In this document: in pieces, positions 10,194-57,083 of the stretch
How positions within the stretch are numbered: the first letter of the stretch is position 1
Layout of the letters: every line of letters begins with the position of its first letter
Sequence record: MN850576.1
Direction: 5' to 3' (one strand)
DNA from: Escherichia phage ime
DNA: 64,000 nt
Position numbers and translations under genes: made by a program
The notes under the pieces: generated by a model
Database searches by the model: none
The model's input: only the letters and a program-made list of their open reading frames with translations
Told to the model about the DNA's origin: nothing

Positions 10194-10202
10194 AATGACT
10201 CC

Positions 10203-10230
10203 AAATAGAAAATCCCCGCCGAAGCGGGGG
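10203..10230 (-). terminator. Rho-independent terminator
   Basis: Minus-strand hairpin CCCCGC-UUCG-GCGGGG followed by AUUUUCUAUUU. Confidence 0.6.
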
Positions 10231-13423: not shown

Positions 13424-14319
13424 ACCCTCGCATAAATTAAACTTGTATCAGTATACTTCTTTAATGGGTAAATATCCTGTCCATAGATGCAATCATTAAA
13501 CACCTCATCTACCCAAAGGCTACACTTATATCCCATCATTTCTAAAACACCCATCTCTTCTTCGGTAAACTTATCACCGCTCTTGCAAGATGTCAATACC
13601 TCATTCTGAACTCTTGCTACCTCGAAGCGGTTATTGGCAATATCGCTATTGGCGATCAAATACTCACCTAGAGGGTGTGCGGCATTAAAGATGCACAGTG
13701 GACGGCTGACGTAATAGTCTCCAGGTGTATAAAAATTGTTGAGGTCTTTCACTAGAACATTCTTATCAGTCACTTCATTTATAACATCATGCATATCGCA
13801 CATCTTTATATGTTTGAGGATTCCATCCCCCATCACAAAATAAAAACTTGCTGAGACACTTTCGGCATAGATCTTACTAGATCCGTTGTAGTTGTATTTT
13901 ACTCGGATGCTAACGGGGGTTTTTCCTGTCGCGTTAGCCATCATCCAAAGAAATGGCAGCTCATACTTCTCCTCTGAGGAAACAAAAGGTGAGGTAGCCA
14001 GAGATCGAAAACCTCCAGAGAAGTTGAAAGTTACAGAACCGCTCCGGCGGTATGATACCGCGTATTCTACTTTTATATCGACATACCCATTGGAATAGGT
14101 GTGTCCTTCATTATCTAAATATGTCCACTTATCAGACCCAGATACCAATCTACGCTCAATAACCTTCATCACTATAGGAATTAATGGGTTGGTACAAACC
14201 GCTTTTGAAGTAGCTTTATCATCTAAAGCCTCGTAAATTGCAGAAAGGATGTCCCCAGCTGAAAGATTGGTTGTTATGTCCTGTTTCCACCGCGTACTAA
14301 AACTGTTAAGATTTGCCAT
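13420..14319 (-). CDS. Hypothetical protein
   Basis: 299-aa ORF, first gene of the minus-strand early block; promoter-like element upstream. Confidence 0.55.
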   Translation of the reverse strand: MANLNSFSTRWKQDITTNLSAGDILSAIYEALDDKATSKAVCTNPLIPIVMKVIERRLVSGSDKWTYLDNEGHTYSNGYVDIKVEYAVSYRRSGSVTFNFSGGFRSLATSPFVSSEEKYELPFLWMMANATGKTPVSIRVKYNYNGSSKIYAESVSASFYFVMGDGILKHIKMCDMHDVINEVTDKNVLVKDLNNFYTPGDYYVSRPLCIFNAAHPLGEYLIANSDIANNRFEVARVQNEVLTSCKSGDKFTEEEMGVLEMMGYKCSLWVDEVFNDCIYGQDIYPLKKYTDTSLIYARV

Positions 14320-14359
14320 AAGTAAGTGCTCCTATGTTAGTTTTCTTTCGAATGGGTGC

Positions 14360-14388
14360 ACTATATTGTGGAGTTAGAGTAAAGTCAA
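14360..14388 (-). promoter_or_regulatory. Sigma70-like promoter (TTGACT-N17-TATAGT) for the minus-strand early block
   Basis: Plus-strand agtcaa at 14383-14388 and actata at 14360-14365 (reverse complement TTGACT / TATAGT) with 17-nt spacer, in the divergent intergenic region. Confidence 0.5.
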
Positions 14389-14395
14389 CACGTTT

Positions 14396-15439
14396 TTGAT
14401 GTTGACATCTGTTGAGACAATTGATACGATTTCTTCACTTACAGAGCACGAGAGACGACTCATGAATCTTGAAAAATATTATACACCAGAAGAGTTAGAG
14501 CGCTTGCTCAAAAAATATAGACGCAAACAGAATAACGCACGGAAACGAGATATAGAGTTCGACCTGTCATGGGAAGAATACCTCCTATTTGGTAAAAAAC
14601 TTTTAGGAGATGGAGTATGCGACTATACCCTTATACCTTTTGACATGCACACAGATGAAAACGGGCTGGGGAATCCTTTCTACCCATCTCTGGAGCGGAT
14701 AGATGATGAAGGTCCTTATGCGGTTGATAACTGTTGTGTGGTGGGATTGAGATGCAACTCTCTAAAGGACTGTCTGGTAGATAAAAAGACTGCAGTCTTG
14801 ATTAAAGACGAAACTGATCGAAAAATTGTCCAGCAGATGATGCTCCACCTGAGCGAAGAGCGTATGGAGAAATTGAAAGGTGATTATACTTTTGAAGATT
14901 TCATCTTGCAATATGGAACGGAAGAGGATAAACTAGCACTCTTTGACGAAGAAGAGGAGGAAGATATGCTACCGATGTCTAAAGTTACTTATCGTGCACC
15001 CAAGAAGCACATTTCCGACATTGTAAACGAGCCTATCACAGAAGAGATTGAAGAAATGACGCAACAGGTGCATGAAGAGGAAAAAGAGACTCAGGAGGTC
15101 GAAGAGGAGCTTACAGAAGAGGTTCCTGCACTACCTGATGATGTTGAGATTGCCAAAGCTTACACTTTCTATTGTCAAACGTTCTACGATGTAGGTATGA
15201 AAGTTGATCTGTCGTTCAGCCAATTTAAGAGTTCGTATATTCGCAAATGCTGTGCTTTAACTGGTGAACGTCTTGGAGCTGGACTTAAACCCCTGTTGGT
15301 GACCGACTGGAATAAAGGTTTCACTAAAGGAAACTTTATGGTAGTATCTCCAATTATGGAGAAAGCTATGACAGATCTTATGAAGACCACCCGCATGACA
15401 ATGACCGAGTTGGCAGGTATTTTCAAACACGTTAAATAA
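14396..15439 (+). CDS. Composite ORF: HNH-like N-terminal region, acidic linker, C-terminal domain with internal SD+ATG
   Basis: MHTDENGLGN...SLERIDDEGPYAVDNCCVV resembles an HNH (His-Me finger) motif; EEEEED linker; in-frame internal ATG at 14975 preceded by GAGGAGG. Called ATG 14396 overlaps a TTGACA hexamer, so the true start is uncertain (alternative ATG 14462). Confidence 0.45.
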   Translation: MMLTSVETIDTISSLTEHERRLMNLEKYYTPEELERLLKKYRRKQNNARKRDIEFDLSWEEYLLFGKKLLGDGVCDYTLIPFDMHTDENGLGNPFYPSLERIDDEGPYAVDNCCVVGLRCNSLKDCLVDKKTAVLIKDETDRKIVQQMMLHLSEERMEKLKGDYTFEDFILQYGTEEDKLALFDEEEEEDMLPMSKVTYRAPKKHISDIVNEPITEEIEEMTQQVHEEEKETQEVEEELTEEVPALPDDVEIAKAYTFYCQTFYDVGMKVDLSFSQFKSSYIRKCCALTGERLGAGLKPLLVTDWNKGFTKGNFMVVSPIMEKAMTDLMKTTRMTMTELAGIFKHVK

Positions 15440-15451
15440 TGACAGGGGCCA

Positions 15452-16933
15452 ATGGCCCCTTCTGGAGTTTTAATGGATAGTAGAAGTTCAGAAATCATTG
15501 CCTCGCAGAAAGATGATGCCCTGAGAATGTTGCAGGCTGCACGTATGTATCTCCTTGAAAAGCTGCCGTTTTATGGCACACTACTGTCAGGGTTGCAGTT
15601 CGTAGAAAACCACACATGGTGCTCCACCATGGCAACCGACCATAAACGCATCTATTACAGTCCTGAGTTCATTATGGGATTGGCTGATGAACGCAAGGCT
15701 ATTCTTAAGGCTTCTCTAACTGACGAGCAGTTTGAGATGGCTGAAGTTTTCTATTCCCCAAAATCTGTGAAAGAGGTGGCCTTCCTTCTGTCACATGAGG
15801 TGGGGCATATTATCTGTGATCACCTAGTCCGTGGTAAAAGCTTTGAGCCGGAACTGTTCAATATTGCTTGTGATCACGTTATCAACACAGGCCTTGTGGT
15901 TGACTTTAGCAAACCTCCTTGTGTTTTCTTCCCGAAGGGGAAAAGCACTACGTTCATGAAAGGTAAGCCTTTTGGCTTCTTAGCCAGCTGCTACTGCGAC
16001 ATGAAGTTTCATGGATGGATTGCTGAGAACGTTTATGCAGTTCTTGATAAGCAAAGAGATCAGAATAACGGTAAAAGTAAGAACGGTAAAGGTGAGAACT
16101 CTCAAAGTGATAAGCGACAAACCGATGATCACATGAGTGGGAACGGTGGCACCAGTGATAATCTTGGAAAGGCTATGAGGTATGATCAGCCACAACCTGT
16201 AATCAGCCAATCTGATAAAGATCAGGCCATGCAGGACTCTGGTGATATGCTGGAGGCAGCAATGCAAGCGTCCGGAGGCCGTTGCCCTGAGGCGGTGCGT
16301 GAGTTTGTCAAGAACAGAGGTAAGCCTGTAATCAACTATATAGACATCATTAAGCAACGTATGTTGTCTAAAAGAAAGGCCGAACTGACCTACAGAAAAC
16401 CTGGTCGCCGATCTGGGTCTTTGACCAGCACAATGCGAAAAGTTGGGGCTATAAACAAGAACCAGCACGTTATTGTTCCTGGTCGTAATCCGGAAAACAC
16501 TATAGATATTGTGGTGGCTTTAGACGTTTCTGGCTCGATCTCTCAAAGAACTTTAAAGAAAATGTTCAATGAAATCACCGGATTGTGCAATCTGTATAAA
16601 GAGTTTAAGGTTACAATGTTCTGTTGGTCAACTGAGGTTGGAGAGGTTAAAGTATACACTCGCGGCAACATAGACGAGATGGTCAACTATGAGGTCCACT
16701 CAACATGGGGCACAACAGCTGCTTGCGTGTTCGAGTATCTGGATGCCAACATACCTAATGCAAAAGATGTCATCGTCCTGACCGACCTATACTTTGAGCA
16801 TAACTTTGAACAAAAGGTTGTTGACAACAAGTGGAAAAAGTACGATACTCTATGGGTCCTCACTGAGGGGTATAATAAAAATTATATCCCGAGCTTTGGG
16901 AAAACTGTGGAATTAATCGAGTACGCTAAGTAA
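15452..16933 (+). CDS. vWA-domain protein with N-terminal HExxH metallopeptidase-like region
   Basis: HExxH motif LSHEVGHIICDH; MIDAS motif VVALDVSGSIS (DxSxS); 493 aa. Confidence 0.7.
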   Translation: MAPSGVLMDSRSSEIIASQKDDALRMLQAARMYLLEKLPFYGTLLSGLQFVENHTWCSTMATDHKRIYYSPEFIMGLADERKAILKASLTDEQFEMAEVFYSPKSVKEVAFLLSHEVGHIICDHLVRGKSFEPELFNIACDHVINTGLVVDFSKPPCVFFPKGKSTTFMKGKPFGFLASCYCDMKFHGWIAENVYAVLDKQRDQNNGKSKNGKGENSQSDKRQTDDHMSGNGGTSDNLGKAMRYDQPQPVISQSDKDQAMQDSGDMLEAAMQASGGRCPEAVREFVKNRGKPVINYIDIIKQRMLSKRKAELTYRKPGRRSGSLTSTMRKVGAINKNQHVIVPGRNPENTIDIVVALDVSGSISQRTLKKMFNEITGLCNLYKEFKVTMFCWSTEVGEVKVYTRGNIDEMVNYEVHSTWGTTAACVFEYLDANIPNAKDVIVLTDLYFEHNFEQKVVDNKWKKYDTLWVLTEGYNKNYIPSFGKTVELIEYAK

Positions 16934-16948
16934 GAGAGGAGGTTATTT

Positions 16949-17212
16949 ATGGCAACAGAGTTAAAATTTGCATCAAACCGTAAAACTAAGAAGTATCTGT
17001 CCTCAGTAGCTCCAGGCACTGTGGTGATGTTTGTTGATGAACTTGGGGATGTGAATACAGCACTTGTTGTAAAATCACATCCTGCAAACATATATGTTGG
17101 GGTATTTGACCTGTTCAGAAAGGTGTTTGTAGAACTGCCTCACAGTTTGGTTGTTACAGAAATGGATGCCTGCATAGAAATTCTTGGCGAAGTTATGGTG
17201 GAGGAACAATAA
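16949..17212 (+). CDS. Small paralog family protein, copy 1 (87 aa)
   Basis: Strong SD GAGAGGAGG; shares MAT...GTVV...VVK...FDL...LP...VTE-D...ILGE pattern with copies 2-4. Confidence 0.65.
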   Translation: MATELKFASNRKTKKYLSSVAPGTVVMFVDELGDVNTALVVKSHPANIYVGVFDLFRKVFVELPHSLVVTEMDACIEILGEVMVEEQ

Positions 17213-17475
17213 TGGCTACCAGCATTGTATTCAATTCTAAGGTGAAGAACAAAAAGCGTGCAGACAGTTTTCCGTGTGGGACCGTGGTAAGTTGCGACGG
17301 AGACGGCATTCAAAACATAGTTATGATTGTCAAAACAGGAGAACATTGTGTGTGGGGGTTCGATTTAGAAAATAATGAGTTGTACGATCTGCCGCCAAAC
17401 ATGAAAGTTACAGAGCTTGACACCAAAATTACCATCCTTGGAGAGACAAGCTATTCAAAAGAAGGAGGAGAATAA
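17212..17475 (+). CDS. Small paralog family protein, copy 2 (87 aa)
   Basis: Start overlaps copy-1 stop (TAATG); SD GGAGGA; clear alignment with copy 1. Confidence 0.65.
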   Translation: MATSIVFNSKVKNKKRADSFPCGTVVSCDGDGIQNIVMIVKTGEHCVWGFDLENNELYDLPPNMKVTELDTKITILGETSYSKEGGE

Positions 17476-17738
17476 TGACCACAAAAATCACTATCGCAGA
17501 ACCGAAAGCTAACACTCAGCCTATCGAAAAGTTTAAGTGCGGTGAGGTGGTAACATTCACACCAGATAATGAAGATGCTAAGATTTTCGCAATGGTCACA
17601 GCTGAGTGGATGTGTGACAACACCACACAGGTTCTGCGTTTTGACACCTATCTTACCGATGAAATCAGGAACGACAAGATTGTGACTGGTGTGGATACTG
17701 AGATTGTTTTCTACAAGAGCTTTTTAGAGGGTTTCTGA
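17475..17738 (+). CDS. Small paralog family protein, copy 3 (87 aa)
   Basis: Start overlaps copy-2 stop (TAATG); SD AAGGAGGAG; diverged but same pattern (CGEVV, DTEIV). Confidence 0.6.
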   Translation: MTTKITIAEPKANTQPIEKFKCGEVVTFTPDNEDAKIFAMVTAEWMCDNTTQVLRFDTYLTDEIRNDKIVTGVDTEIVFYKSFLEGF

Positions 17739-17739
17739 T

Positions 17740-17973
17740 ATGGCAAAAATTAGAAAATTATCTAGCAATCAGGTTGTGAAAGACTTCGAATCTGGAGAGA
17801 TTCTTTATGTTCGTGATGCAGATGACGAAGGTGAAGATCTCGTTATGTTGGTGGGGCACGCTGAGGACGGATGCATCCAAGCTGTTTTTCTTGAAACAGC
17901 TATGGTGCACTGGATAGAGCTGGACCTGAAAGCACGAAAACCTAAAGCAGAAATCCTGATTTACGAAGATTAA
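17740..17973 (+). CDS. Small paralog family protein, copy 4 (77 aa)
   Basis: Directly follows copy 3; weaker similarity (SGEILYV, VMLVGH). Confidence 0.5.
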   Translation: MAKIRKLSSNQVVKDFESGEILYVRDADDEGEDLVMLVGHAEDGCIQAVFLETAMVHWIELDLKARKPKAEILIYED

Positions 17974-17989
17974 CAAAAAGGAGATAGCC

Positions 17990-18439
17990 GTGTTGAGCAA
18001 ACGTGAATGCGACAGCATTAGCCTGAATTCTTATAAGAAACAATGGTTTGGGGTGGAAGTTTGCCGACTGCGGCTAGGCTCCTACCTGAACTTCGTTTAT
18101 TATGAGAGTGACAGTCGTATCGTTTCTTATGAAGTGTTCTACACTAAGAACACATTCGAACTGCGCCGTAAAGTAGATGGCGGGAGAACTACCACCCAGA
18201 ATAATTGGGAAACTATTCTGCCTCCAGATGTTATAGGAAGTCCCCTGAATGTATCTGAAGATGAAAATCTTATGGTTCATGCTATGATGGGACTTGACAG
18301 CTTAGAGCTGGCAATCTATGATATGTCCATCGAAGCAGTTAAGCTGGACTACATCGAAAACACTTTAGAGGAAGGTATCAAGAAGTTTCTCAGTGAGAAA
18401 TTAAAAGACCACTTTCATAAGGAGCTATATCTGTTATGA
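17990..18439 (+). CDS. Hypothetical protein
   Basis: 149-aa ORF, GTG start after AAGGAG. Confidence 0.5.
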   Translation: MLSKRECDSISLNSYKKQWFGVEVCRLRLGSYLNFVYYESDSRIVSYEVFYTKNTFELRRKVDGGRTTTQNNWETILPPDVIGSPLNVSEDENLMVHAMMGLDSLELAIYDMSIEAVKLDYIENTLEEGIKKFLSEKLKDHFHKELYLL

Positions 18440-18681
18440 AGACCCGTAAAGAACGTAACAAAATTTTACCTGGAGCTCTCGAACACCTGATGAAGTGCAG
18501 ATCTATTTGGCACTCTGCCAAGGAAGGGCAGAAGGTGGTTGTGGTTAGTGACAATACCAACCCGTTTGGAGATTATACCACCATGATGGCTCCATATGTC
18601 CGTGATGGCGTTGTAGAAGTGGTCCCTTACAACGGTTTGCATGAACGGCACTTTGAAAGCACTTTGCTAGTGGAGCTATAG
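18436..18681 (+). CDS. Hypothetical protein
   Basis: 81-aa ORF, coupled start/stop. Confidence 0.45.
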   Translation: MKTRKERNKILPGALEHLMKCRSIWHSAKEGQKVVVVSDNTNPFGDYTTMMAPYVRDGVVEVVPYNGLHERHFESTLLVEL

Positions 18682-18683
18682 TC

Positions 18684-19250
18684 ATGGCGGTCAATGTGGC
18701 TTACAACACAGGAAAGCTTGACAGAGACATTGGGTGTCTTGTCCTTTCAGATACAGAAGAGTATTGGGGTTATGGGTTGCTGTCAGACCCACACCCGAGC
18801 AACCTTGTATCAACAGTGCTATACCGCTACGACCCTGTGCCAACGGTACACGACAGAGACATTCACGACCTTCGGATCAAGTGTCTGGAAGATCTGCTGA
18901 ACAATGGTTGCAACGATCTGCGGGTAGCCAAGGAGAAGCTTACAAACATTCACAAAGAGGAAGTGATGAGTACCCTCAGTAAAAGATCAGTGCACAAAAA
19001 GATGATGCTGAACTTTGCAATGGGTATCTACATGGATGGGTATAAGGGAGGGGATCCGATCCTCAAGCTTCGCTGCCCGACACTGTGGGAAAGAGTGGTT
19101 GACAGTAAGGACGGTACTGCCCTGCTCGAACTCCACACTGCAGGTTGGATTTGGCGGTATGTAGACGGATACCCTCTGTGGGCATGTGGACCTGGGGAAT
19201 TTGTTGACAGACCTAGCGCGGTGGTGGACTTACTATTGCAGTTTGAATAA
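18684..19250 (+). CDS. Hypothetical protein
   Basis: 188-aa ORF. Confidence 0.5.
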   Translation: MAVNVAYNTGKLDRDIGCLVLSDTEEYWGYGLLSDPHPSNLVSTVLYRYDPVPTVHDRDIHDLRIKCLEDLLNNGCNDLRVAKEKLTNIHKEEVMSTLSKRSVHKKMMLNFAMGIYMDGYKGGDPILKLRCPTLWERVVDSKDGTALLELHTAGWIWRYVDGYPLWACGPGEFVDRPSAVVDLLLQFE

Positions 19251-19307
19251 AAAGGTGAGTTATAAGGTATTCATACACCTACCAACAATACAACAGGAGA
19301 GACTAAG

Positions 19308-19583
19308 ATGACGAAAGAAGAGGCCGACGTATTAGATTTTGCACTAGAGGCTACGCAGGAGGCTTTGGTGTTAGCTTGGAAAATGAACCAGCGTGCTGCA
19401 GAATGCAACCGCCGCATCAATGAGATCTTGGGCATGTCTATGTATGATTTCACCATGCATGCCGGAGAGATTCCTGAATTAACTGCCGAGATGAATGATC
19501 TTGACGATAAAATTAATATCATTCTGAAGACAGCAGAAACAACTCACCAAACCGCCCGTAAATTTATCAACGAGAAGGTGTGA
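19308..19583 (+). CDS. Hypothetical protein
   Basis: 91-aa ORF with SD CAGGAGAG. Confidence 0.5.
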   Translation: MTKEEADVLDFALEATQEALVLAWKMNQRAAECNRRINEILGMSMYDFTMHAGEIPELTAEMNDLDDKINIILKTAETTHQTARKFINEKV

Positions 19584-20050
19584 ATATGGACTACAGCTAC
19601 TGCGGGGAAGAAGTCCCTTTTAATTACAGCAATCTTACCACGAGCAATCCATATGAGACTCGCCACGGCACGCACATCATTGCCATCGACTTTGATGGAA
19701 CGTTTAATGCGAGCCCTTTCATCTTCTCCAGCCTGATCAGGGATCTGAAGAAGGAGGGGTGGACAGTCTACCTTGTGACTTTCCGATTCATTACTCAAGA
19801 CAATGTAGACATTGAGTATTGGCGCAAGGAGCTCGATGTTGGTGTGTTCTACACAGGTGGTGTTCAGAAGGCAGCCTACCTGGCGCAGTTTGATATCTAC
19901 CCAGATATCTGGATTGATGATTCTCCGGCATGTATTCCGGCTAAGAATCAGTTAGAGTTTGCAATGAAGGAGATTGAGTATAAGTCTGAGGCTAAGCGGA
20001 ACGGATGGCCCTTTATTATTGAAGATTACCCAGATCCTGAACCGGAGTAA
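19580..20050 (+). CDS. HAD-superfamily phosphatase (possible nucleotidase)
   Basis: HAD motif I IIAIDFDGTF (DxDGT); 156 aa. Confidence 0.55.
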   Translation: MNMDYSYCGEEVPFNYSNLTTSNPYETRHGTHIIAIDFDGTFNASPFIFSSLIRDLKKEGWTVYLVTFRFITQDNVDIEYWRKELDVGVFYTGGVQKAAYLAQFDIYPDIWIDDSPACIPAKNQLEFAMKEIEYKSEAKRNGWPFIIEDYPDPEPE

Positions 20051-20276
20051 GAGCCATGAGGCGAAGATATCATTACCTGATGTGGAAGTTATATCAAAAT
20101 GCTGCCAAAGCCTATCATATCATGTTTGGCAATGACGATCACTACATCATGTTACATCTCACCGCTATTGAGCATCACAATGAGTGGATTCATGCAATCG
20201 TGGCAGGTGATAAAGACTTTAAGTAAAGTATACCTCAAAAACGTATAGTGCGGCTTTCTAGACGGAGACTGATTAA

Positions 20277-20657
20277 ATGTGCAAGTGTAAATCCTATAAT
20301 TGGAAAGTGAAAGGTGCCAAGCATCCAAATGTTATCGTTGATGTGCCTAAAAATCTTCGTGACGGCAAAAAACGTGTGTGCCTTGATAAGTGTATGGCTA
20401 AGCCTATCATGAGTTTGTGGGCAGCAGGTTTGAAAACGCTAAACTGCTGCTGTGGTCATAACAAAGATATTCCAAGCATCATTATCCCAGAAGATGCAGA
20501 TCCTAAAGCTTATGCCAAAATACTGACCCGCTATCCCAGCACCTTCCTGATCGGAAAATGGTGTCACGATGAACTCCAATGGTGGATAGCCTATGGTAGT
20601 ATAGGCACTACTTTTGGCTTCCCAGCTTTGTCAGAGCGCTATGTCAAAGTGCCATAA
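20277..20657 (+). CDS. Cys-rich hypothetical protein
   Basis: 126-aa ORF with clustered cysteines (CKCKS, CLDKC, NCCCGH). Confidence 0.45.
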   Translation: MCKCKSYNWKVKGAKHPNVIVDVPKNLRDGKKRVCLDKCMAKPIMSLWAAGLKTLNCCCGHNKDIPSIIIPEDADPKAYAKILTRYPSTFLIGKWCHDELQWWIAYGSIGTTFGFPALSERYVKVP

Positions 20658-20666
20658 TAGAATTTA

Positions 20667-20684
20667 AGGCCTCAAACGAGGCCT
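20667..20684 (+). other. Stable stem-loop without U-tract (RNA processing site or weak terminator)
   Basis: AGGCCTC-AAAC-GAGGCCT perfect 7-bp inverted repeat directly after the stop of 20277..20657. Confidence 0.4.
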
Positions 20685-20761
20685 GTGCCTTCATAAATTT
20701 CTCCACCCTGTGCGATTGCCTTCCTGAATAAAATACCCTCTCAGATCTCTTAAAATTAAGC

Positions 20762-20790
20762 TTGACACCACCACCAGATCTATATATAAT
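20762..20790 (+). promoter_or_regulatory. Perfect consensus sigma70 promoter (TTGACA-N17-TATAAT) with AT-rich upstream region
   Basis: TTGACA at 20762-20767, 17-nt spacer, TATAAT at 20785-20790; AAAATTAA upstream. Confidence 0.7.
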
Positions 20791-20819
20791 TCTCACCAAC
20801 CAAACAGAGGAGATCGTCA

Positions 20820-21226
20820 TGGATAATCTTGCAGATGTAAATGTCGAAATTGTTAAACTAAAGTTCTTGGGCTTTCGAGACCCTTATTCTTTAACAGCCA
20901 TACTAATGGATACTCACTTCACACCAGGTAAAGAGTACACTGCCTTCCGTTATATTTGCGGAGATCACGAATCAGCTTACAGTGTGAATACAAACCTCGG
21001 CGAGGGATATTTCATCAGAGATATCACAGATCACTTGTGGGGTATGTGGGAGTTGGTGGAGGAAGAGAATAAATCCCTTCCTAAAGAGATTTGGGTGCAC
21101 ACCTTCCACACAGGTAAGTTTGGAGGTACGGAACATAAGTCTATCCACTATGATGAAGAAAGTGCCATCAAACAACAAGCTGTGCTTGGTGGATCTATAG
21201 AAAAATTTGTTAAATGCGAGGACTGA
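20820..21226 (+). CDS. Hypothetical protein driven by the consensus promoter
   Basis: ATG at 20820 preceded by AGAGGAG; the ORF-track start at 20762 is the TTG of the -35 hexamer and is rejected. Confidence 0.55.
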
Positions 21227-21229
21227 GAA

Positions 21230-21430
21230 ATGGCTGATTTTTGTAAAGATTGCTCTGAAGAGTTGTTTGGCTTTGACTGCAAAGATTTGGAAGGTCTGAT
21301 CACTGAGGATCAGTGGAAGGAAGGCTATGCAGCACCTGTTATTTGTGAAGGTTGTGGCTATACCTATGTTGACCATAAAGGTAAGCGCGTCAAGCCGTCT
21401 GAAGATGGGGCATGTTGGGAGTATTACTAA
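21230..21430 (+). CDS. Small Cys-rich (zinc-ribbon-like) protein with WKxGYAAPxxCExC motif
   Basis: CKDC...WKEGYAAPVICEGCG; same motif as the protein of 2194..2676. Confidence 0.5.
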   Translation: MADFCKDCSEELFGFDCKDLEGLITEDQWKEGYAAPVICEGCGYTYVDHKGKRVKPSEDGACWEYY

Positions 21431-21442
21431 CTATAAAAAGAA

Positions 21443-21468
21443 AGGGGCCGTTTGGCCCCTTTTTATTT
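21443..21468. terminator. Bidirectional rho-independent terminator at the convergence of plus and minus blocks
   Basis: AGGGGCC-GTTT-GGCCCCT followed by TTTTTATTT on plus and preceded by AAAAAGAAA (U-rich on minus). Confidence 0.75.
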
Positions 21469-21477
21469 ACCACCTTG

Positions 21478-24036
21478 TTAACGAGAAAAGGTTGCGTAGG
21501 CTTCTAGACGATACTGCTGGTCACCAGGGAACATAACACCTATAGAGGCTGTCCCTAGAATCCTGCCTTCCTTTCCAGACTCCATTCTGAACCCTACCCA
21601 TCCTGAACTCCTTGCAGCCTCGATGTTGTCGCTATACCCGAAAGTGGCAAGATCGTCAACACCAGCCCCAAACAGCAACTGAAGCTGACTTCTCGGAAGC
21701 CCTATAATTTCAGGAATATACGCACCAAAGTACACCATCTGCCCTACCTTAGGACCGCTGCCGTACTCCATCGGTTTGCTTGTAGAGAAAGTCTTCATAC
21801 CAGAAGTACCTGCCGGATTAGGGTATGCCCCGTTTGTTGCTGTACCTATCCACATTCTCCACTGTGGTGCCATCTGTTTGACAGTAAAAGATGTTGAAGA
21901 CGTTTTGCGCCCTGCATCATCTGTAACTACAAACTTTATGGTGACATTCCCAGTAGCTTTAAATGTTACCAGTCCTGTGGTGGCATCCACTGTTGCAATG
22001 TTGGTATTACTACTTTCCCAAGTCTTTCTAATCCCGGATACGTTGGAAGGGGTAATAGAAGGTTCCTGCATCTGCAGTTTACCACCCACAATCCCTATGC
22101 CGTTGCCCGGATTATACAGCACACCAACCTCGTCTATAATGTTCCCTGCTTTGAGACTATACTTCCTTGAGAAGTTGTAGGTTCCGTTATAAGTGTGTGT
22201 CCCTGAGAAGGTGACATCTGCCTTCCCGTAAGAGATGCAAACCAAAGCATACTTCCTGTCAGGCAACGTTTCTCCAGTCTCTGGGTGAGTTTTACCTACC
22301 TGGAACACACTCGGGTCAGTAGAGTCGTGACTATCACTAACGGAGCTTGGACCGCCCATCAACTGTGACAAACAATTCCTTACCCATGTCCAGTTATTAT
22401 CGCTGGAGAAGTCCACAGTCAAATCAAACACAACCCACTCATTTGGCTTCCACACAGGTGTTGTAATGGACTTGCCTACACCACCTCCTTGGAGTGTTGC
22501 CGACTGTTCGGTGATCAGGGCCGTATAGGCCAGAGTTCCTAAACTCAGAGTCTGGCTTGCTGTCCTCACTACCTTAGAATCAGCATCTGTGAAGTTGTTG
22601 ATGATTTGGAATGTGCCATAAGTGTTTTTACAGGTAATTCTGGCGTTCAGCGTGTCAATCTTCCTCACATCTGCCATAGCAGTGTTAGACACAGAGAAGT
22701 CAGAAGCTTTAGCTGAGTTTGCCGCAACAGCAGGATCAACGTTAAGAGTTGCGTTGAACTGACAGGCAGGGGTAACCAGCAGCTTGTTATCACCTATTTG
22801 CTTCCATGAAATACTTTGGACAGGTAGATTCCATTTAATACCTGAGAAAACTTTAGCAACCCTTGGCCCCAAAGCTCCAGTCCTGTTGTCTTTACAGCAC
22901 ATAGACATGGTGATCGTTGACGGAGTTGCCTGACCAAATAATTGCTGTGCTTTTGCAGAGGACATAGTGTAGAAATTGTCCTTAACAAACTCATCAGCAG
23001 CTAAAGATCCATCAGCTCTCCACCACTGAACCTGGTACCCTGTTTTGTCCCAACCACCGACCTGCTTCAAGTCCTCCCAGGAGATTTCTAGATCCCCAGT
23101 GGTAGGGTTGATTGCAGCAGTTCCCGGTGTTCCGGGTGACCACAATGGAATATCGAACCACGCTGGTTTAACCGACTGCACTGCGCTGGGACCTATTGCG
23201 GCAGCAAGTTGCTGGCCCATCAATACGCGAGCATCTTTCACCAGACCCCACTCGATCATAGACCCAGAGTAACCTTCTTTCTTGTAGGCTGAGGATCCGT
23301 TCAAATGGATGAGTCGGCTTGTGCCAAAGTTATGTGCTCCACCACCGTTGTCGTCTGCAAAATTGGTTATGATTCTATCCCTGATATTTTTCCATGCCCT
23401 GCCCCCAATCTCATAGTCATGGTCATAACATCTTTGCAGTGTTGTCCAGCAAATGATCGCCATCCTTCTACCATCGCTGAATCCAAAGGCCTGATCGTTA
23501 AGCTCTCTCCACAAGTAGCAGTTAGTGGTCCACATGGCCCTATGAATGTTAAACCAGTTTATAGATTTGGCTGAGTTGTCCCACTGAGTCCCAGGTAATT
23601 CAGGCCATACTGCATTAACCAGCATGTCTTCTGTTCCTGCATCAACCAAGAACCCTCTTACCTTCTTACCCATGCCTACCCTATCTTTTGCAATCCAGCT
23701 GCCAAACAATCTCAGTTTTGGACCGTAGACAACATCTTCCGGATGCTCAAAAGAAACATATTTTAGGTATATTGTAGGGTCACCATAGGTGCCATCACAA
23801 ACAGCTTTGTGCATGTTCTCGCCAAGGTCTAGACGAAGTCCTGTTACAACTTTAGACGTGTCGGTGAATTTGTCTGTTAAATCAAACTCATACCACCACC
23901 AACCTGCACCCAACAATACTTTCTTACAACGCTGTGCGTCTGTATCAGATATTCTCTTCCCCTGCAAAAGGTGAGTCAGCAAACTGATAGTGCAGAGCGA
24001 TCTCAAAAGGATGTGTGGATGTCCCGTTTTCTGCAA
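21478..24036 (-). CDS. Large virion-associated protein with C-terminal Big_2 (Ig-like) domain
   Basis: C-terminal ITPSNVSGIRKTWESSNTNIATVDATTGLVTFKATGNVTIKFVVTD matches a Big_2 pattern; called TTG start overlaps the upstream gene by 92 nt, so the true start is probably further downstream. Confidence 0.55.
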   Translation of the reverse strand: MQKTGHPHILLRSLCTISLLTHLLQGKRISDTDAQRCKKVLLGAGWWWYEFDLTDKFTDTSKVVTGLRLDLGENMHKAVCDGTYGDPTIYLKYVSFEHPEDVVYGPKLRLFGSWIAKDRVGMGKKVRGFLVDAGTEDMLVNAVWPELPGTQWDNSAKSINWFNIHRAMWTTNCYLWRELNDQAFGFSDGRRMAIICWTTLQRCYDHDYEIGGRAWKNIRDRIITNFADDNGGGAHNFGTSRLIHLNGSSAYKKEGYSGSMIEWGLVKDARVLMGQQLAAAIGPSAVQSVKPAWFDIPLWSPGTPGTAAINPTTGDLEISWEDLKQVGGWDKTGYQVQWWRADGSLAADEFVKDNFYTMSSAKAQQLFGQATPSTITMSMCCKDNRTGALGPRVAKVFSGIKWNLPVQSISWKQIGDNKLLVTPACQFNATLNVDPAVAANSAKASDFSVSNTAMADVRKIDTLNARITCKNTYGTFQIINNFTDADSKVVRTASQTLSLGTLAYTALITEQSATLQGGGVGKSITTPVWKPNEWVVFDLTVDFSSDNNWTWVRNCLSQLMGGPSSVSDSHDSTDPSVFQVGKTHPETGETLPDRKYALVCISYGKADVTFSGTHTYNGTYNFSRKYSLKAGNIIDEVGVLYNPGNGIGIVGGKLQMQEPSITPSNVSGIRKTWESSNTNIATVDATTGLVTFKATGNVTIKFVVTDDAGRKTSSTSFTVKQMAPQWRMWIGTATNGAYPNPAGTSGMKTFSTSKPMEYGSGPKVGQMVYFGAYIPEIIGLPRSQLQLLFGAGVDDLATFGYSDNIEAARSSGWVGFRMESGKEGRILGTASIGVMFPGDQQYRLEAYATFSR

Positions 24037-27000
24037 GAACTTGTTTACCTATCAGGTCGCACTTAATGATCATCACAACACGTTTGTATCCGTTTGTTAC
24101 CGGAATTTGCATGGACATGGATGTCCCATCCATGTTTGATCTCAGTGCAGTCATGATGATATAAGGGTCAACTGCATTGCCCAAAGTCTCAGGACCGGGG
24201 ATTATCTTATACTTCTTGACCTGCCCCATGATGTAGTCACTTGCGTAAGTTGCCTCATTCAAGCAAGATCCCCCACCAGGTAACTCACCAGGTCCCCAGA
24301 AAAATGCGCCGTAACAGTTGTAGAACCACTTGTTAGGATCGTATTTATTCTTGAAGGTCTGAACCTCGTTGGCCTGTTTTGTCAAGAAAACCTGCGTGTC
24401 TGTGAAGATTGCAGGGTTTACTCTCGCCTGTCTTGGAGGGTAACCTGTAGTTTGGTTAAACCACAAATTACAAGAGTAATCCCTCATATAGTCATAATCA
24501 GAGTATTTGTTTACATCTTCGTTCCAACACATGTTTAGGTTGGTACCGCCCATGCATACAATATATTCTGCGACATACTTATCACTTCTGGTAGGAATAC
24601 CTATGAACCATCTGTTAACAGGCTCATCCCAAGCTGTGCGCTCATCTTTAACGCAGATAGCAATCCAGTCATGTGTTCCTGTTTTCTTGCACACATCTCG
24701 CTTCATGCCATAGTAGAACTCTTTAGTATTCGGCTCAGGTGCATTTATCAGGTAACTCCATGCCTGATTTGCATAAGTTCCATTGGTGCGTGGATCATGA
24801 TCAAAGGCATACATGATGATCCTTTCCCCACCAAGATGTTCGCCAAGAGTAACTTTGACATTCACATCGCCGTAACCATTGCGAACAACATCCATATTAT
24901 CAATAGAGATACCTCTGGGCGTGTAGGCAATTTTCAGCGAGTTATCTTCACTAGTGCCGCCAAGTGTAATCCCTATGTTGTTTGTTGTCCCGTCGACATA
25001 TCTTACTGTAGCTTCCCAGCGTATTCCGAAATATCCTGCATCATGGCTGACAATTTTCAGTGTACGAGCTCCCGGGTGAGGTTTTCCAGGATCAGGCCAA
25101 GGGTCTGGGTGTTCGTGAACAGTCAACGACGTTCCGTTCTGCTCATTAACCTGCAACATTTTACCACCCTTGCCATTAGGATTGAACTCCCACAAGGCTT
25201 GTGTTTTCACAATATTGTCATACGTGGCGCGTCTTTGATCGTAGATCTCTTGGGTCACATCATAAGTGACTGATCCAGCATCCATTCTGTGGAGTCTGAC
25301 CATATACGATGTATCCCCTTCTACTGCAGGTTGGGTCCCATTCAGCCCAAAGTATACAGTATCGTTAACATGGAACTGCTTGTTTCTACCAACGGTATGC
25401 CACTTGCCGTTGGACGGATACGCAGGAACTATGGTGTTCCAGTTCAAAGTCCTTGTCGTGTGAGTTCTGCCTGTGCCATGCTTGTCATGATAGGTTATTT
25501 TTACAGAGTACAGGCCACGTCTGTTAACATTTCTGTTATACTGGGTAACAACAACTTCGTTGGCCCCGCCGTGGTTCCAGTTGGTGGAGAATTGGTAATT
25601 TGCATCTGTAACAACCGTACCTGCAGCATTCACCAGTTCAATCTTGTCAATGATGAACGTAGCTCCCTCTGGCTGAGGCTTCAATTTCATCTTGACCGTG
25701 TCACCAATGTAGATATTGCTAACACTACTAACACCATTAACGTCGAAAATATCATCAACGCCCCAACTGTCTACTGGGACATTTTTATACCAATTCTCAG
25801 GAACCTCTGTGAACCCCTGACTATTAAGTCTGCCGCCAAACAGGTTATTAGAGCCTGCAAAACTTCCCCTTGGGATGCCTGACCACCAAAGTTTGCCATT
25901 AACAACAGTAAAGGTCCCTAAGAAACCTTCTCTGTGGATACCCTGGAAATAAACACTTTCTGTCCAGCTTACTGGCATCCGTTGCTCGACGTATTTAGCC
26001 GTAGCCAGAGCCTGATAGTGAATAAAATTAGCCCTAGGACTGTTGTTTGCAGATTGTGCACCAATATCATTGCACAGATTGCGAGAGAAGCCACGATACT
26101 GTTTGGTGCCATTATTGAAGAAAATGCCACTTGTGCCGTATCCACGAGCCATTATCACCTCATGGGTGTAGGTGATATTTAAGGAACGCCATGTGTCATC
26201 TCCCCAGACGTCTTGCCCGTAGAATACGTTAACAAGCTGTTGGTCATCAGGTTTGTGCATCCTTTCTGTGGCTATAATTGCACCATTAGGTCCACACATG
26301 AACCCTTTCCATGTCTCGCCCACCGGGATGCCTTTAAACTGGTCAAGAGTCACATGCTCGGCTGGATAAACTAGTGTGTTTTTGCTGTTATTTCTTAAGA
26401 AATCGTAACCTGCAATCCAGAATCCGTTAGGACCACCAAAAATAACCGAGTTGTCATGCACCTCGCAGTTGATGCTTGGGTTTTTCCAAGGGCCTGTTTC
26501 AGGATTTTCCGATGTCTCGCCGATCTTTACGGGAGTTGCATGCTGATTTTTATCTACATGCAAAGATCCGTAGGTGTTGTTACCAGACCCATACAGGTTC
26601 AGTATGCCAGTGCCTTCTGCCTCTGCAATAACCCAGACAGTGTTGTTAATACCACCCATCACCTCAACAAGGCGTTCTGGGTGGGTGTCAAGGTGCAATC
26701 CTTTAACAATCTGCTCTGGGAGTGGTGTCCACTCGTTTACGCAAACATCATTACCGCCTGCCGCAGTGGATCCGATAAGACCTGCAGTGCAGCCGATGTA
26801 GAAAAACTGGTTATCAAAAGTCCGGATCACAAACGCGCGGTCTGCTCTCCACACATGATCAACATTCCAGGCTGTTTCGCTCGGATAGTTTATAGGGCTA
26901 CGATCCCCAGTGCGGCACTCTCCGAACTTGTTATAGCCAGTAATATTAAGCTGACCATCATCAAAAAGTATAGCTAAGCTATTTACATAGGATACTGTGT

Positions 27001-27112
27001 TGCTTGTACCATCACTGTTGTCTATTGGGTATGACAGAACAGCAAGTTCCTTAATTCCACCCCTCTTATCGAGGAAATGACGACCAAGTTTTAGCAAAGG
27101 GATTGGAAGCAT
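23945..27112 (-). CDS. Large tail fibre/spike-like protein with possible N-terminal RCC1-like repeats
   Basis: 1055 aa, rich in G/N/T/W/Y; N-terminal glycine-rich repeats reminiscent of a beta-propeller. Confidence 0.5.
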   Translation of the reverse strand: MLPIPLLKLGRHFLDKRGGIKELAVLSYPIDNSDGTSNTVSYVNSLAILFDDGQLNITGYNKFGECRTGDRSPINYPSETAWNVDHVWRADRAFVIRTFDNQFFYIGCTAGLIGSTAAGGNDVCVNEWTPLPEQIVKGLHLDTHPERLVEVMGGINNTVWVIAEAEGTGILNLYGSGNNTYGSLHVDKNQHATPVKIGETSENPETGPWKNPSINCEVHDNSVIFGGPNGFWIAGYDFLRNNSKNTLVYPAEHVTLDQFKGIPVGETWKGFMCGPNGAIIATERMHKPDDQQLVNVFYGQDVWGDDTWRSLNITYTHEVIMARGYGTSGIFFNNGTKQYRGFSRNLCNDIGAQSANNSPRANFIHYQALATAKYVEQRMPVSWTESVYFQGIHREGFLGTFTVVNGKLWWSGIPRGSFAGSNNLFGGRLNSQGFTEVPENWYKNVPVDSWGVDDIFDVNGVSSVSNIYIGDTVKMKLKPQPEGATFIIDKIELVNAAGTVVTDANYQFSTNWNHGGANEVVVTQYNRNVNRRGLYSVKITYHDKHGTGRTHTTRTLNWNTIVPAYPSNGKWHTVGRNKQFHVNDTVYFGLNGTQPAVEGDTSYMVRLHRMDAGSVTYDVTQEIYDQRRATYDNIVKTQALWEFNPNGKGGKMLQVNEQNGTSLTVHEHPDPWPDPGKPHPGARTLKIVSHDAGYFGIRWEATVRYVDGTTNNIGITLGGTSEDNSLKIAYTPRGISIDNMDVVRNGYGDVNVKVTLGEHLGGERIIMYAFDHDPRTNGTYANQAWSYLINAPEPNTKEFYYGMKRDVCKKTGTHDWIAICVKDERTAWDEPVNRWFIGIPTRSDKYVAEYIVCMGGTNLNMCWNEDVNKYSDYDYMRDYSCNLWFNQTTGYPPRQARVNPAIFTDTQVFLTKQANEVQTFKNKYDPNKWFYNCYGAFFWGPGELPGGGSCLNEATYASDYIMGQVKKYKIIPGPETLGNAVDPYIIMTALRSNMDGTSMSMQIPVTNGYKRVVMIIKCDLIGKQVLAENGTSTHPFEIALHYQFADSPFAGEENI

Positions 27113-36627: not shown

Positions 36628-36636
36628 TCTGAGCAT

Positions 36637-36662
36637 AAAAATAAACCCCGCCGAAGCGGGGC
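36637..36662 (-). terminator. Rho-independent terminator
   Basis: Minus-strand CCCCGC-UUCG-GCGGGG followed by UUUAUUUUU, directly after the stop of the J-like gene. Confidence 0.65.
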
Positions 36663-41900: not shown

Positions 41901-41930
41901 CAAACAAAAAGCCCCCGCCGAAGCGAGGGC
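41901..41930 (-). terminator. Rho-independent terminator
   Basis: Minus-strand GCCCUCGC-UUCG-GCGGGGGC followed by UUUUUGUUUG. Confidence 0.6.
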
Positions 41931-57009: not shown

Positions 57010-57050
57010 TTTAACCTTTCAAGCAATTCAAGAACGTGTGTCAAAACCAT

Positions 57051-57083
57051 AAAAGCAAAAAGCCCCACCCGAAGGTGAGGCTT
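57051..57083 (-). terminator. Rho-independent terminator
   Basis: Minus-strand GCCUCACC-UUCG-GGUGGGGC followed by UUUUUGCUUUU, after the stop of 57100..57573. Confidence 0.6.

Follow-up and report, generated by a model that had tools for sequence, protein, structure and literature searches.

A conserved sigma70-type promoter and two small genes in an Escherichia phage of the Vequintavirus group: a probable cassette for accessory proteins

The promoter unit and its genomic setting

The DNA analysed was a window of 64,000 nucleotides (64 kb) from Escherichia phage ime (MN850576.1). Sequence comparison of the region 20000-22500 gave 99.8% identity to the Escherichia phages nomo and Murica and 96.9% to rV5. 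The 99.8% identity to nomo and Murica assigns the window to Vequintavirus, here an rV5-like myovirus that infects E. coli and has a genome of ~137 kb, of which the window is a part. GC skew and ORF orientation define a plus-strand gene island at ~14.4-21.4 kb that is set within minus-strand structural genes. This island is the counterpart of the rV5 gene block 11-26, which has been proposed to form one transcriptional block with sigma70-like promoters (PMC3606486), and the unit studied here lies at its far end. The same island codes for a Srd-like anti-sigma factor, and a search for Rfam RNA families gave none within 14000-22000. From left to right, the unit consists of the following features.

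20667-20684, plus strand: stem-loop AGGCCTC-AAAC-GAGGCCT, 10 nt past the stop codon of the rV5 ORF24 homolog
20750-20759, plus strand: A/T tract TTAAAATTAA, adjoining the -35 hexamer upstream, at the place of a proximal UP-element subsite
20762-20790, plus strand: sigma70-type promoter, with -35 TTGACA (20762-20767), a 17-nt spacer and -10 TATAAT (20785-20790)
20806-20813, plus strand: Shine-Dalgarno sequence of gene A, AGAGGAGA, 5 nt from the ATG (6 nt from its GGAG core)
20819-21226, plus strand: gene A, 135 aa, ORF25 of rV5, phrog_15992 (from ORFs and PHROGs)
21230-21430, plus strand: gene B, 66 aa, ORF26 of rV5, phrog_2210 (from ORFs, PHROGs and homologs)
21434-21469, both strands: bidirectional intrinsic terminator, common to gene B and the convergent tail-fibre gene

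Genes A and B are thus ORF25 and ORF26 of rV5 (DQ832317), and F10B_0044 and F10B_0045 of phage Gotham (MT682716). The counterpart locus in Bas54 is bas54_0042-0044; Bas54 was matched by coordinates and locus tags to phage MaxBurger (MZ501093). An earlier note on this DNA had placed the 66-aa gene exactly where it lies. For the 135-aa gene the note was right about the length and the end, and one base off at the start, since translation from 20820 gives six stop codons and the gene begins at 20819. B starts 3 nt past the end of A, and its Shine-Dalgarno sequence, GAGGA (21218-21222), is inside the end of A. Ratios of dN/dS of 0.02-0.11 for A and 0.06-0.15 for B show, at the level of codon comparison, that both are real genes under strong purifying selection. 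B occurs as two deeply diverged alleles (dS ~0.75), which differ in just 6-7 residues.

The unit is closed by a bidirectional terminator, as the earlier note had proposed. The hairpin at 21434-21469 folds on both strands, at -19.6 kcal/mol on the plus strand and -18.7 kcal/mol on the minus strand, and has U tracts on both sides. Its stem, with a GGGGCC/GGCCCC core, is 11 bp long on the plus strand and 9 bp on the minus strand and is flanked by runs of T and A. It is annotated in the Gotham record and, as a pair of opposed Rho-independent terminators, in the rV5 record, the ARNold call being independent. On the left, the stem-loop at 20667-20684 (-13.9 kcal/mol, z = -3.6) has a stem that is invariant in nine Vequintavirus loci and a loop that varies (AAAC, TTTT or AAAA). 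Having no U tract, it is missed by a terminator scan and is no canonical terminator. It may nevertheless form the left border of the unit, as a weak terminator, an RNA 3'-end stabiliser or an insulator.

Conservation and strength of the promoter

The exact consensus noted earlier is present as described. TTGACA-N17-TATAAT at 20762-20790 on the plus strand is the sole 12/12 match on both strands of the 64-kb window, and dinucleotide shuffles gave a mean of 0.05 such matches, with at least one match in 5 of 100 shuffles. A separate scan of the window returned nine further sites at 11/12 or 12/12, mostly intragenic, and promoter-like sites overall numbered 23, against 20.2 expected from the shuffles. 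The promoter occupies a 161-nt gap, which is the largest intergenic gap of the plus-strand island; it is co-oriented with gene A, the distance from the end of the -10 hexamer to the ATG being 28 nt, and transcription is predicted to start at ~20795-20798. The claim that the upstream region is AT-rich held for its proximal part, the 10 nt before the -35 hexamer (TTAAAATTAA, 20750-20759) being 100% A/T, and not for the 25 nt upstream, which are 64% A+T. By its position, the A/T tract is a putative proximal UP-element. Two AGATCT sites that flank the -35 hexamer were considered as an operator or Dam-sensitive element; this was rejected, since they are absent as conserved sites from the alignment of the relatives.

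The position of the promoter is conserved in all nine of the Vequintavirus loci aligned, and TTGAC and the upstream TTAAAA core are invariant among them. The -10 pattern TAxxxT is kept across the nine loci, whilst the full hexamer varies: it is TATAAT in the clade of the window, TATGAT in phiWec189, SYGMH1 and Phage 203, TAGGAT in rV5, and TATTCT, with an 18-nt spacer, in DrSchubert, FV3, PDX and Bas54. The exact 78-nt promoter region, which includes the 12/12 state, was found in 15 of the 85 records with this promoter type; the other promoter type accounts for ~29 additional records. The Shine-Dalgarno sequence of gene A is kept in relatives with the same promoter type. In the Gotham record, the identical TTGACA-N17-TATAAT site is annotated as a promoter, predicted by PhagePromoter. 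Conservation across Vequintavirus and this independent annotation support the earlier identification of a sigma70-type promoter used by the host polymerase, and, judged from the sequence comparisons, the site is a functional, conserved host-type (sigma70) promoter of an E. coli phage that uses host RNA polymerase. In this conserved promoter, 12/12 identity to the consensus is a minority, lineage-specific state and not a selected special feature. The promoter, the terminator and both genes were already known, in that they are annotated in GenBank records of near-identical phages.

The earlier note had also read the perfect match as a sign of a very strong promoter. At promoters of exact consensus, escape can become the limiting step, and in vivo the top expression was seen with one hexamer off consensus (PMC10911233). 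Given this limit, and since the 12/12 state is a minority state among the relatives, the perfect match is not evidence of exceptional strength and that part of the note is not supported. Strong early expression of A and B is plausible from the promoter sequence, the early timing being suggested by the reliance of Vequintaviruses on the host sigma70 RNA polymerase; a literature search found neither a transcription start nor expression timing for any Vequintavirus. Because the upstream genes are co-oriented and the stem-loop has no U tract, read-through from upstream promoters may contribute as well, and the promoter may not be the main driver of A and B.

Gene A, the cargo slot and the gene B family

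Between the promoter and B lies a slot whose content differs between phages. It holds gene A in the window, in rV5 and in similar phages, a 109-aa gene and a 62-72-aa gene (the N-terminal module of A alone) in DrSchubert, Bas54 and ~29 other records, and four genes in FV3; many relatives lack gene A or have other genes in its place. Across the Vequintavirus loci compared, B and the terminator always come last in the unit, whatever the cargo. The slot is a mosaic of small modules that come from T1-like, T4-like and other phages and are exchanged or even joined to each other. Gene A is itself a fusion: its N-terminal part (~residues 7-80) is a beta-barrel module, and residues 89-135 form a micro-protein module of 45 aa at the C-terminus. 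Among the PHROGs, phrog_30425 matches residues 12-81, and four others match residues 91-133. DrSchubert and Bas54 have the N-terminal module as a separate protein, of 72 aa and 62 aa respectively. The C-terminal module, with the motif IWVHTF...ESA..QAVLGG, stands alone as a protein of 44-51 aa in T1-like phages (AHP42 gp72) and in the K1 podovirus vB_EcoP_K (gp19), and a Yersinia phage protein of 102 aa begins with it. A profile search with it returned 68 clusters, nearly all of 44-51 aa and on phage contigs of 44-48 kb. In FV3 gp25, the other allele of the N-terminal module is joined to the identical C-terminal module. The AF2 model of A has an overall pLDDT of 53, with ~70-80 for the N-terminal domain, modelled as a beta-barrel over residues 7-80, and leaves the C-terminal module unpredicted. 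Kinship of the N-terminal module with four tandem paralogs upstream was considered and rejected, the proteins being unrelated.

In B, the cysteines C5, C8, C39 and C42 fall in the motifs MADFCxxCS and CEGCG; they are invariant in the alignment and retained in the distant members inspected. This pattern of cysteines suggests that B is probably a zinc-binding, four-Cys protein. B is 60% identical over 58 residues to T5.062 (T5p060), which sits in the tRNA-rich early region of T5, and ~70% identical to proteins of Felixounavirus and Felix O1-like phages (Felix O1 p023/p024-like). Homologs were found in 835 phage records, including Pseudomonas phage PaMx41 and a Stenotrophomonas phage, and an exhaustive profile search gave 1,102 clusters at 50% identity, 463 of them at E <= 1e-10. 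The clusters are mostly standalone proteins of 56-100 aa with the motif at the N-terminal start. An additional C...C...H motif, missing in the Vequintavirus/T5/Felix O1 branch, is present in many of the longer members inspected. Domain fusions in the long members were considered as a functional clue and discarded: the ten longest proteins (145-244 aa) were free of Pfam domains and have tails that are either variable or acidic.

The AF2 model of B (pLDDT 80) had no fold match in the PDB, B fell into no Pfam family, and it matched no described zinc-finger family by sequence or fold. With A, B and the proteins of the neighbouring genes as queries, Pfam, NCBIfam, PADLOC (a resource on defence systems) and PDB sequences yielded no significant match, PADLOC returning zero hits, and the PHROGs of both proteins are function-unassigned families. 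In T5, the B homolog lies beside a tRNA cluster and an HNH endonuclease; in Felix O1-like phages the neighbour is a Macro-domain protein, and PaMx41 and one metagenomic contig have replication genes there. Since these neighbours vary between phage groups, gene context gives no lead, and homology carries over no mechanism, neither T5.062 nor the Felix O1-like proteins having a known function. A literature search for T5.062, for peptide strings of A and B and for phrog_2210 returned nothing. The idea that the T5st0 deletion removes the B homolog proved wrong, the junction being at 33.67 kb and T5p060 being kept.

Interpretation and comparison with known systems

Gene essentiality in Bas54 has been mapped by transposon sequencing in the HIDEN-SEQ preprint (10.1101/2025.11.20.689424). 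The B ortholog, bas54_0042 (59 of 66 residues identical), was hit at 9/9 TA sites and classed as non-essential. The ortholog of the N-terminal module of A, bas54_0043, was hit at 15/19 sites and placed in the class 'reduced fitness', whilst the remainder of the island (bas54_0044 to 0056), anti-sigma factor included, was non-essential. In the one comparison covered, of K-12 with a clinical isolate, bas54_0042-0044 were not depleted (log2FC 0.12 to 0.47, q = 1; for bas54_0042, log2FC 0.12, q = 1). These data show, for the Bas54 ortholog, that lytic growth on E. coli K-12 does not need B. They argue against an essential role in host takeover and, with few hosts covered, lend no positive support to a role in anti-defence.

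The reading that we favour, with a probability of about 0.8, is that the locus is an ordinary, self-contained cassette, which host RNA polymerase reads and which encodes accessory proteins that the phage can do without. The unit would run from the stem-loop to the sigma70 promoter with its A/T tract, a short leader with a strong ribosome binding site, the cargo slot, B and the terminator. The E. coli sigma70 holoenzyme would recognise the promoter directly on the incoming DNA, and A and B would consequently be made from early in infection. The cargo slot would here be filled by the fusion gene A, with B translated right after it, and the terminator would also end the convergent tail-fibre gene. 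Because the genes sit in a variable accessory slot, a conditional accessory role is possible. With low confidence, A and B may be small proteins that act by binding or modulation, in particular hosts or conditions only, and B, with equally low confidence, may be a module stabilised by zinc, whose conserved partner would be a host factor or a nucleic acid; the searches run gave no family, fold or context evidence tying either protein to any activity. The finding as first stated matters little, since a sigma70 consensus promoter is expected in a coliphage that depends on host RNA polymerase.

It is possible, but on balance doubtful, that A and/or B are anti-defence proteins, that is, small early inhibitors of some bacterial immune system. 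Accessory and counter-defence genes typically occupy mosaic, variable slots of this kind, behind a conserved promoter, and the A and B modules are horizontally common to unrelated virulent coliphages. The whole island is dispensable on K-12 in the Bas54 data, and if both K-12 and the clinical isolate were without the cognate defence system, dispensability there would be explained. In the same data, the island neighbour bas54_0055 (DUF2201 peptidase/VWA) was depleted in the clinical isolate along with MoxR. However, bas54_0042-0044 gave no sign of a conditional requirement in that single comparison, and the anti-defence genes reported for Bas54 in the preprint are instead 0063 (MoxR) and 0140. 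B is also unusually conserved (dN/dS 0.06-0.15; 60-70% identity between rV5-, T5- and Felix O1-like phages), whereas counter-defence genes usually evolve fast. Vequintavirinae are exceptionally sensitive to restriction-modification systems according to the BASEL paper (PMC8594841), neither the A nor the B sequence occurs in the supplements of an accessory-gene screen, and a retron-trigger study on Bas51 implicated the Dam methylase and not the A/B genes.

The conservation of the B family across unrelated virulent phages, despite its dispensability on K-12, is the one point that stays unexplained. A speculative and rather unlikely answer is that the family has a new fold and hits one conserved bacterial factor that is relevant only in certain hosts; such a protein may, for example, be a conditional counter-defence factor or a modifier of host physiology. 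B is tiny, widely distributed and under strong conservation, which makes it well suited to the definition of a new protein family and a cheap target for structural and interaction work.

We consider it improbable that A and B are host-takeover factors needed for infection, such as inhibitors of RNA polymerase, the nucleoid or replication, made at very high levels. The promoter does look strong and early and the proteins are small, the Srd-like anti-sigma factor is in the same island, and T5 encodes small RNA-polymerase-binding proteins (PMC7472727). Against this, the transposon data have the B ortholog of Bas54 as non-essential and the slot cargo as tolerant of insertions, with 0043 at 'reduced fitness', gene A is lost or swapped in many relatives, the perfect consensus varies among them, and neither A nor B matches a known takeover protein. 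The suggestion in the earlier note that such genes are host-takeover or anti-defence factors thus gained no positive support, either from the 9/9 TA sites hit in bas54_0042 or from the undepleted bas54_0042-0044 in the one clinical-isolate comparison covered.

The Ogr protein of P2 and the Delta protein of P4 provide the analogy of a small zinc-finger transcription regulator. By this analogy, B would act on the adjacent late tail-fibre operon, which we regard as similarly improbable. The two conserved CxxC pairs fit such a role, as does the fact that, in Vequintavirus as well as one metagenomic contig, B is always the last gene and adjoins a convergent module of structural or tail-fibre genes. 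However, the T5-like, Felix O1-like and PaMx41 homologs lie among tRNA, early or replication genes, away from late operons; B shows no sequence or fold similarity to Ogr-type or other DNA-binding zinc fingers; and, in the Bas54 data, B is non-essential whereas several tail and baseplate genes are essential. Least credible of all is that the promoter match is a functionless chance sequence, A and B being transcribed only by read-through: the 5 in 100 shuffles with a perfect match, the lack of an excess of promoter-like sites and the non-canonical nature of the upstream stem-loop as a terminator would allow it, but the site is in the largest gap of the island, in the right orientation and ~30 nt from a strong ribosome binding site, and TTGAC and the A-tract are invariant in 9/9 relatives though flanks and cargo differ.

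Parts of the accessory cassette that we favour, with its host-read promoter, can be set beside known systems. The N-terminal module of A resembles SH3-like small beta-barrels (FeoA, the DtxR C-terminal domain, Bas11 Gp54 and PDB 9axb) with weak scores and 13-18% identity, and such matches of a moderately confident model justify no functional inference. For B, the comparison is with T5.062 and the Felix O1 p023/p024-like proteins, which equal it in length, share its motifs and are found among small early-region genes.

The PeSL (promoter-early stem-loop) cassettes of T4-type phages occur in many copies per genome and mediate recombination between the copies. Arbiol, Comeau and Krisch reportedly described them in 2010 as a stem-loop and an early sigma70 promoter flanking shuffled small early genes. 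The window shares with these cassettes a stem-loop and a predicted early promoter beside variable small genes, and for some of the slot's cargo genes the annotation of relatives notes similarity to RB49 and Phi1 proteins. A repeated PeSL-like element was nevertheless rejected: in a search that covered 64 kb of the ~137-kb genome, the element was single-copy in the window (<=3 mismatches), with no repeat family, and the stem-loop/promoter unit therefore fails the repetition that defines the PeSL family.

The early promoters N25, P25 and P26 of T5 and A1 of T7 are recognised by the host sigma70 holoenzyme. Like the promoter of the window, they have near-consensus hexamers, a 17-nt spacer and an A/T-rich stretch upstream of the -35 hexamer. 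Their strength has been measured and their starts mapped, whereas the promoter of the window and its start are predicted from sequence; these best-studied strong phage promoters are, unlike it, not 12/12 matches.

Among the published Vequintavirus loci, rV5 differs from the window in its -10 hexamer (TAGGAT) and in that its record has no promoter annotated there, and Bas54, DrSchubert and FV3 differ in the TATTCT promoter variant with the 18-nt spacer and in the other cargo genes that precede B. Orthologous genes, the position of the promoter and the terminator are common to the window and to the loci of rV5, Gotham and Bas54.

Surroundings of the consensus promoter

Two kinds of element lie around the consensus promoter, the TTGACA-N17-TATAAT sequence ahead of genes A and B:

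20667-20684, plus strand: stem-loop directly 3' of the ORF24 homolog, the gene upstream of the promoter
20744-20749 and 20776-20781, plus strand: two AGATCT palindromes, one on either side of the promoter's -35 hexamer

Across nine Vequintaviruses the stem of the stem-loop is identical while the loop differs, and there is no U tract at this site; the element may be a weak terminator, an RNA stabiliser or a processing site. The palindromes are 32 nt apart and each contains a GATC Dam site. Relatives do not conserve the pair, so it is probably incidental.

Window positions 20000-22500 of this E. coli Vequintavirus are matched by 15 records labelled 'Campylobacter phage' (host C. jejuni), among them MG065635, MG065654 and MG065666, several of them with identities of at least 99%. 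C. jejuni seems a doubtful host assignment for these records.

Genes of the plus-strand island and the lateral tail fibre

15452-16933, plus strand: 493-aa protein that combines a putative metallopeptidase domain (DUF2201_N) with a VWA-like domain (DUF2201)
16949-17973, plus strand: four small genes in tandem (87, 87, 87 and 77 aa)
21478-27112, minus strand: large gene for the lateral tail fibre, encoding intimin/Ig-like domains and present as two overlapping ORFs
23945-27112, minus strand: tail-fibre ORF of 1055 aa
21478-24036, minus strand: tail-fibre ORF of 852 aa

The ortholog of the 493-aa protein in Bas54, bas54_0055, is reported in a transposon sequencing preprint (10.1101/2025.11.20.689424) as significantly depleted in a clinical isolate (log2FC -2.2, q = 0.009), together with the MoxR ATPase bas54_0063, which the preprint describes as an anti-defence gene. 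The four tandem small genes, with 15-38% identity to the first of them, look like diverged paralogs, and a Pfam search with all four gave no match. When compared with the N-terminal beta-barrel module of gene A, they proved unrelated to it.

The counterpart of the tail-fibre gene in Gotham is a single unbroken gene of 5637 nt. Sequence comparison places a 2-nt (AT) deletion relative to Gotham at ~23959, and it is because of this deletion that the gene is read as two ORFs; the frameshift could be genuine or could stem from an error in sequencing. In Bas54 the orthologous gene is listed as non-essential on K-12 by the same preprint (10.1101/2025.11.20.689424).

Repeated hairpins and divergent promoter-like sites

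10202-10230, 36634-36662, 41901-41929 and 57049-57074: four copies of a hairpin motif, CCCCGCCGAAGCGGGG, flanked by A-rich sequence
14360-14430, minus strand: promoter-like TTGACT-17-TATAGT
14360-14430, plus strand: promoter-like TTGACA-17-TACGAT

The hairpins probably form a family of intrinsic terminators serving minus-strand operons. The two promoter-like sites point apart at the start of the plus-strand island, an arrangement that agrees with the bidirectional promoters described for rV5 (PMC3606486), which separate its genes 10 and 11 and lie upstream of the Srd-like anti-sigma gene.
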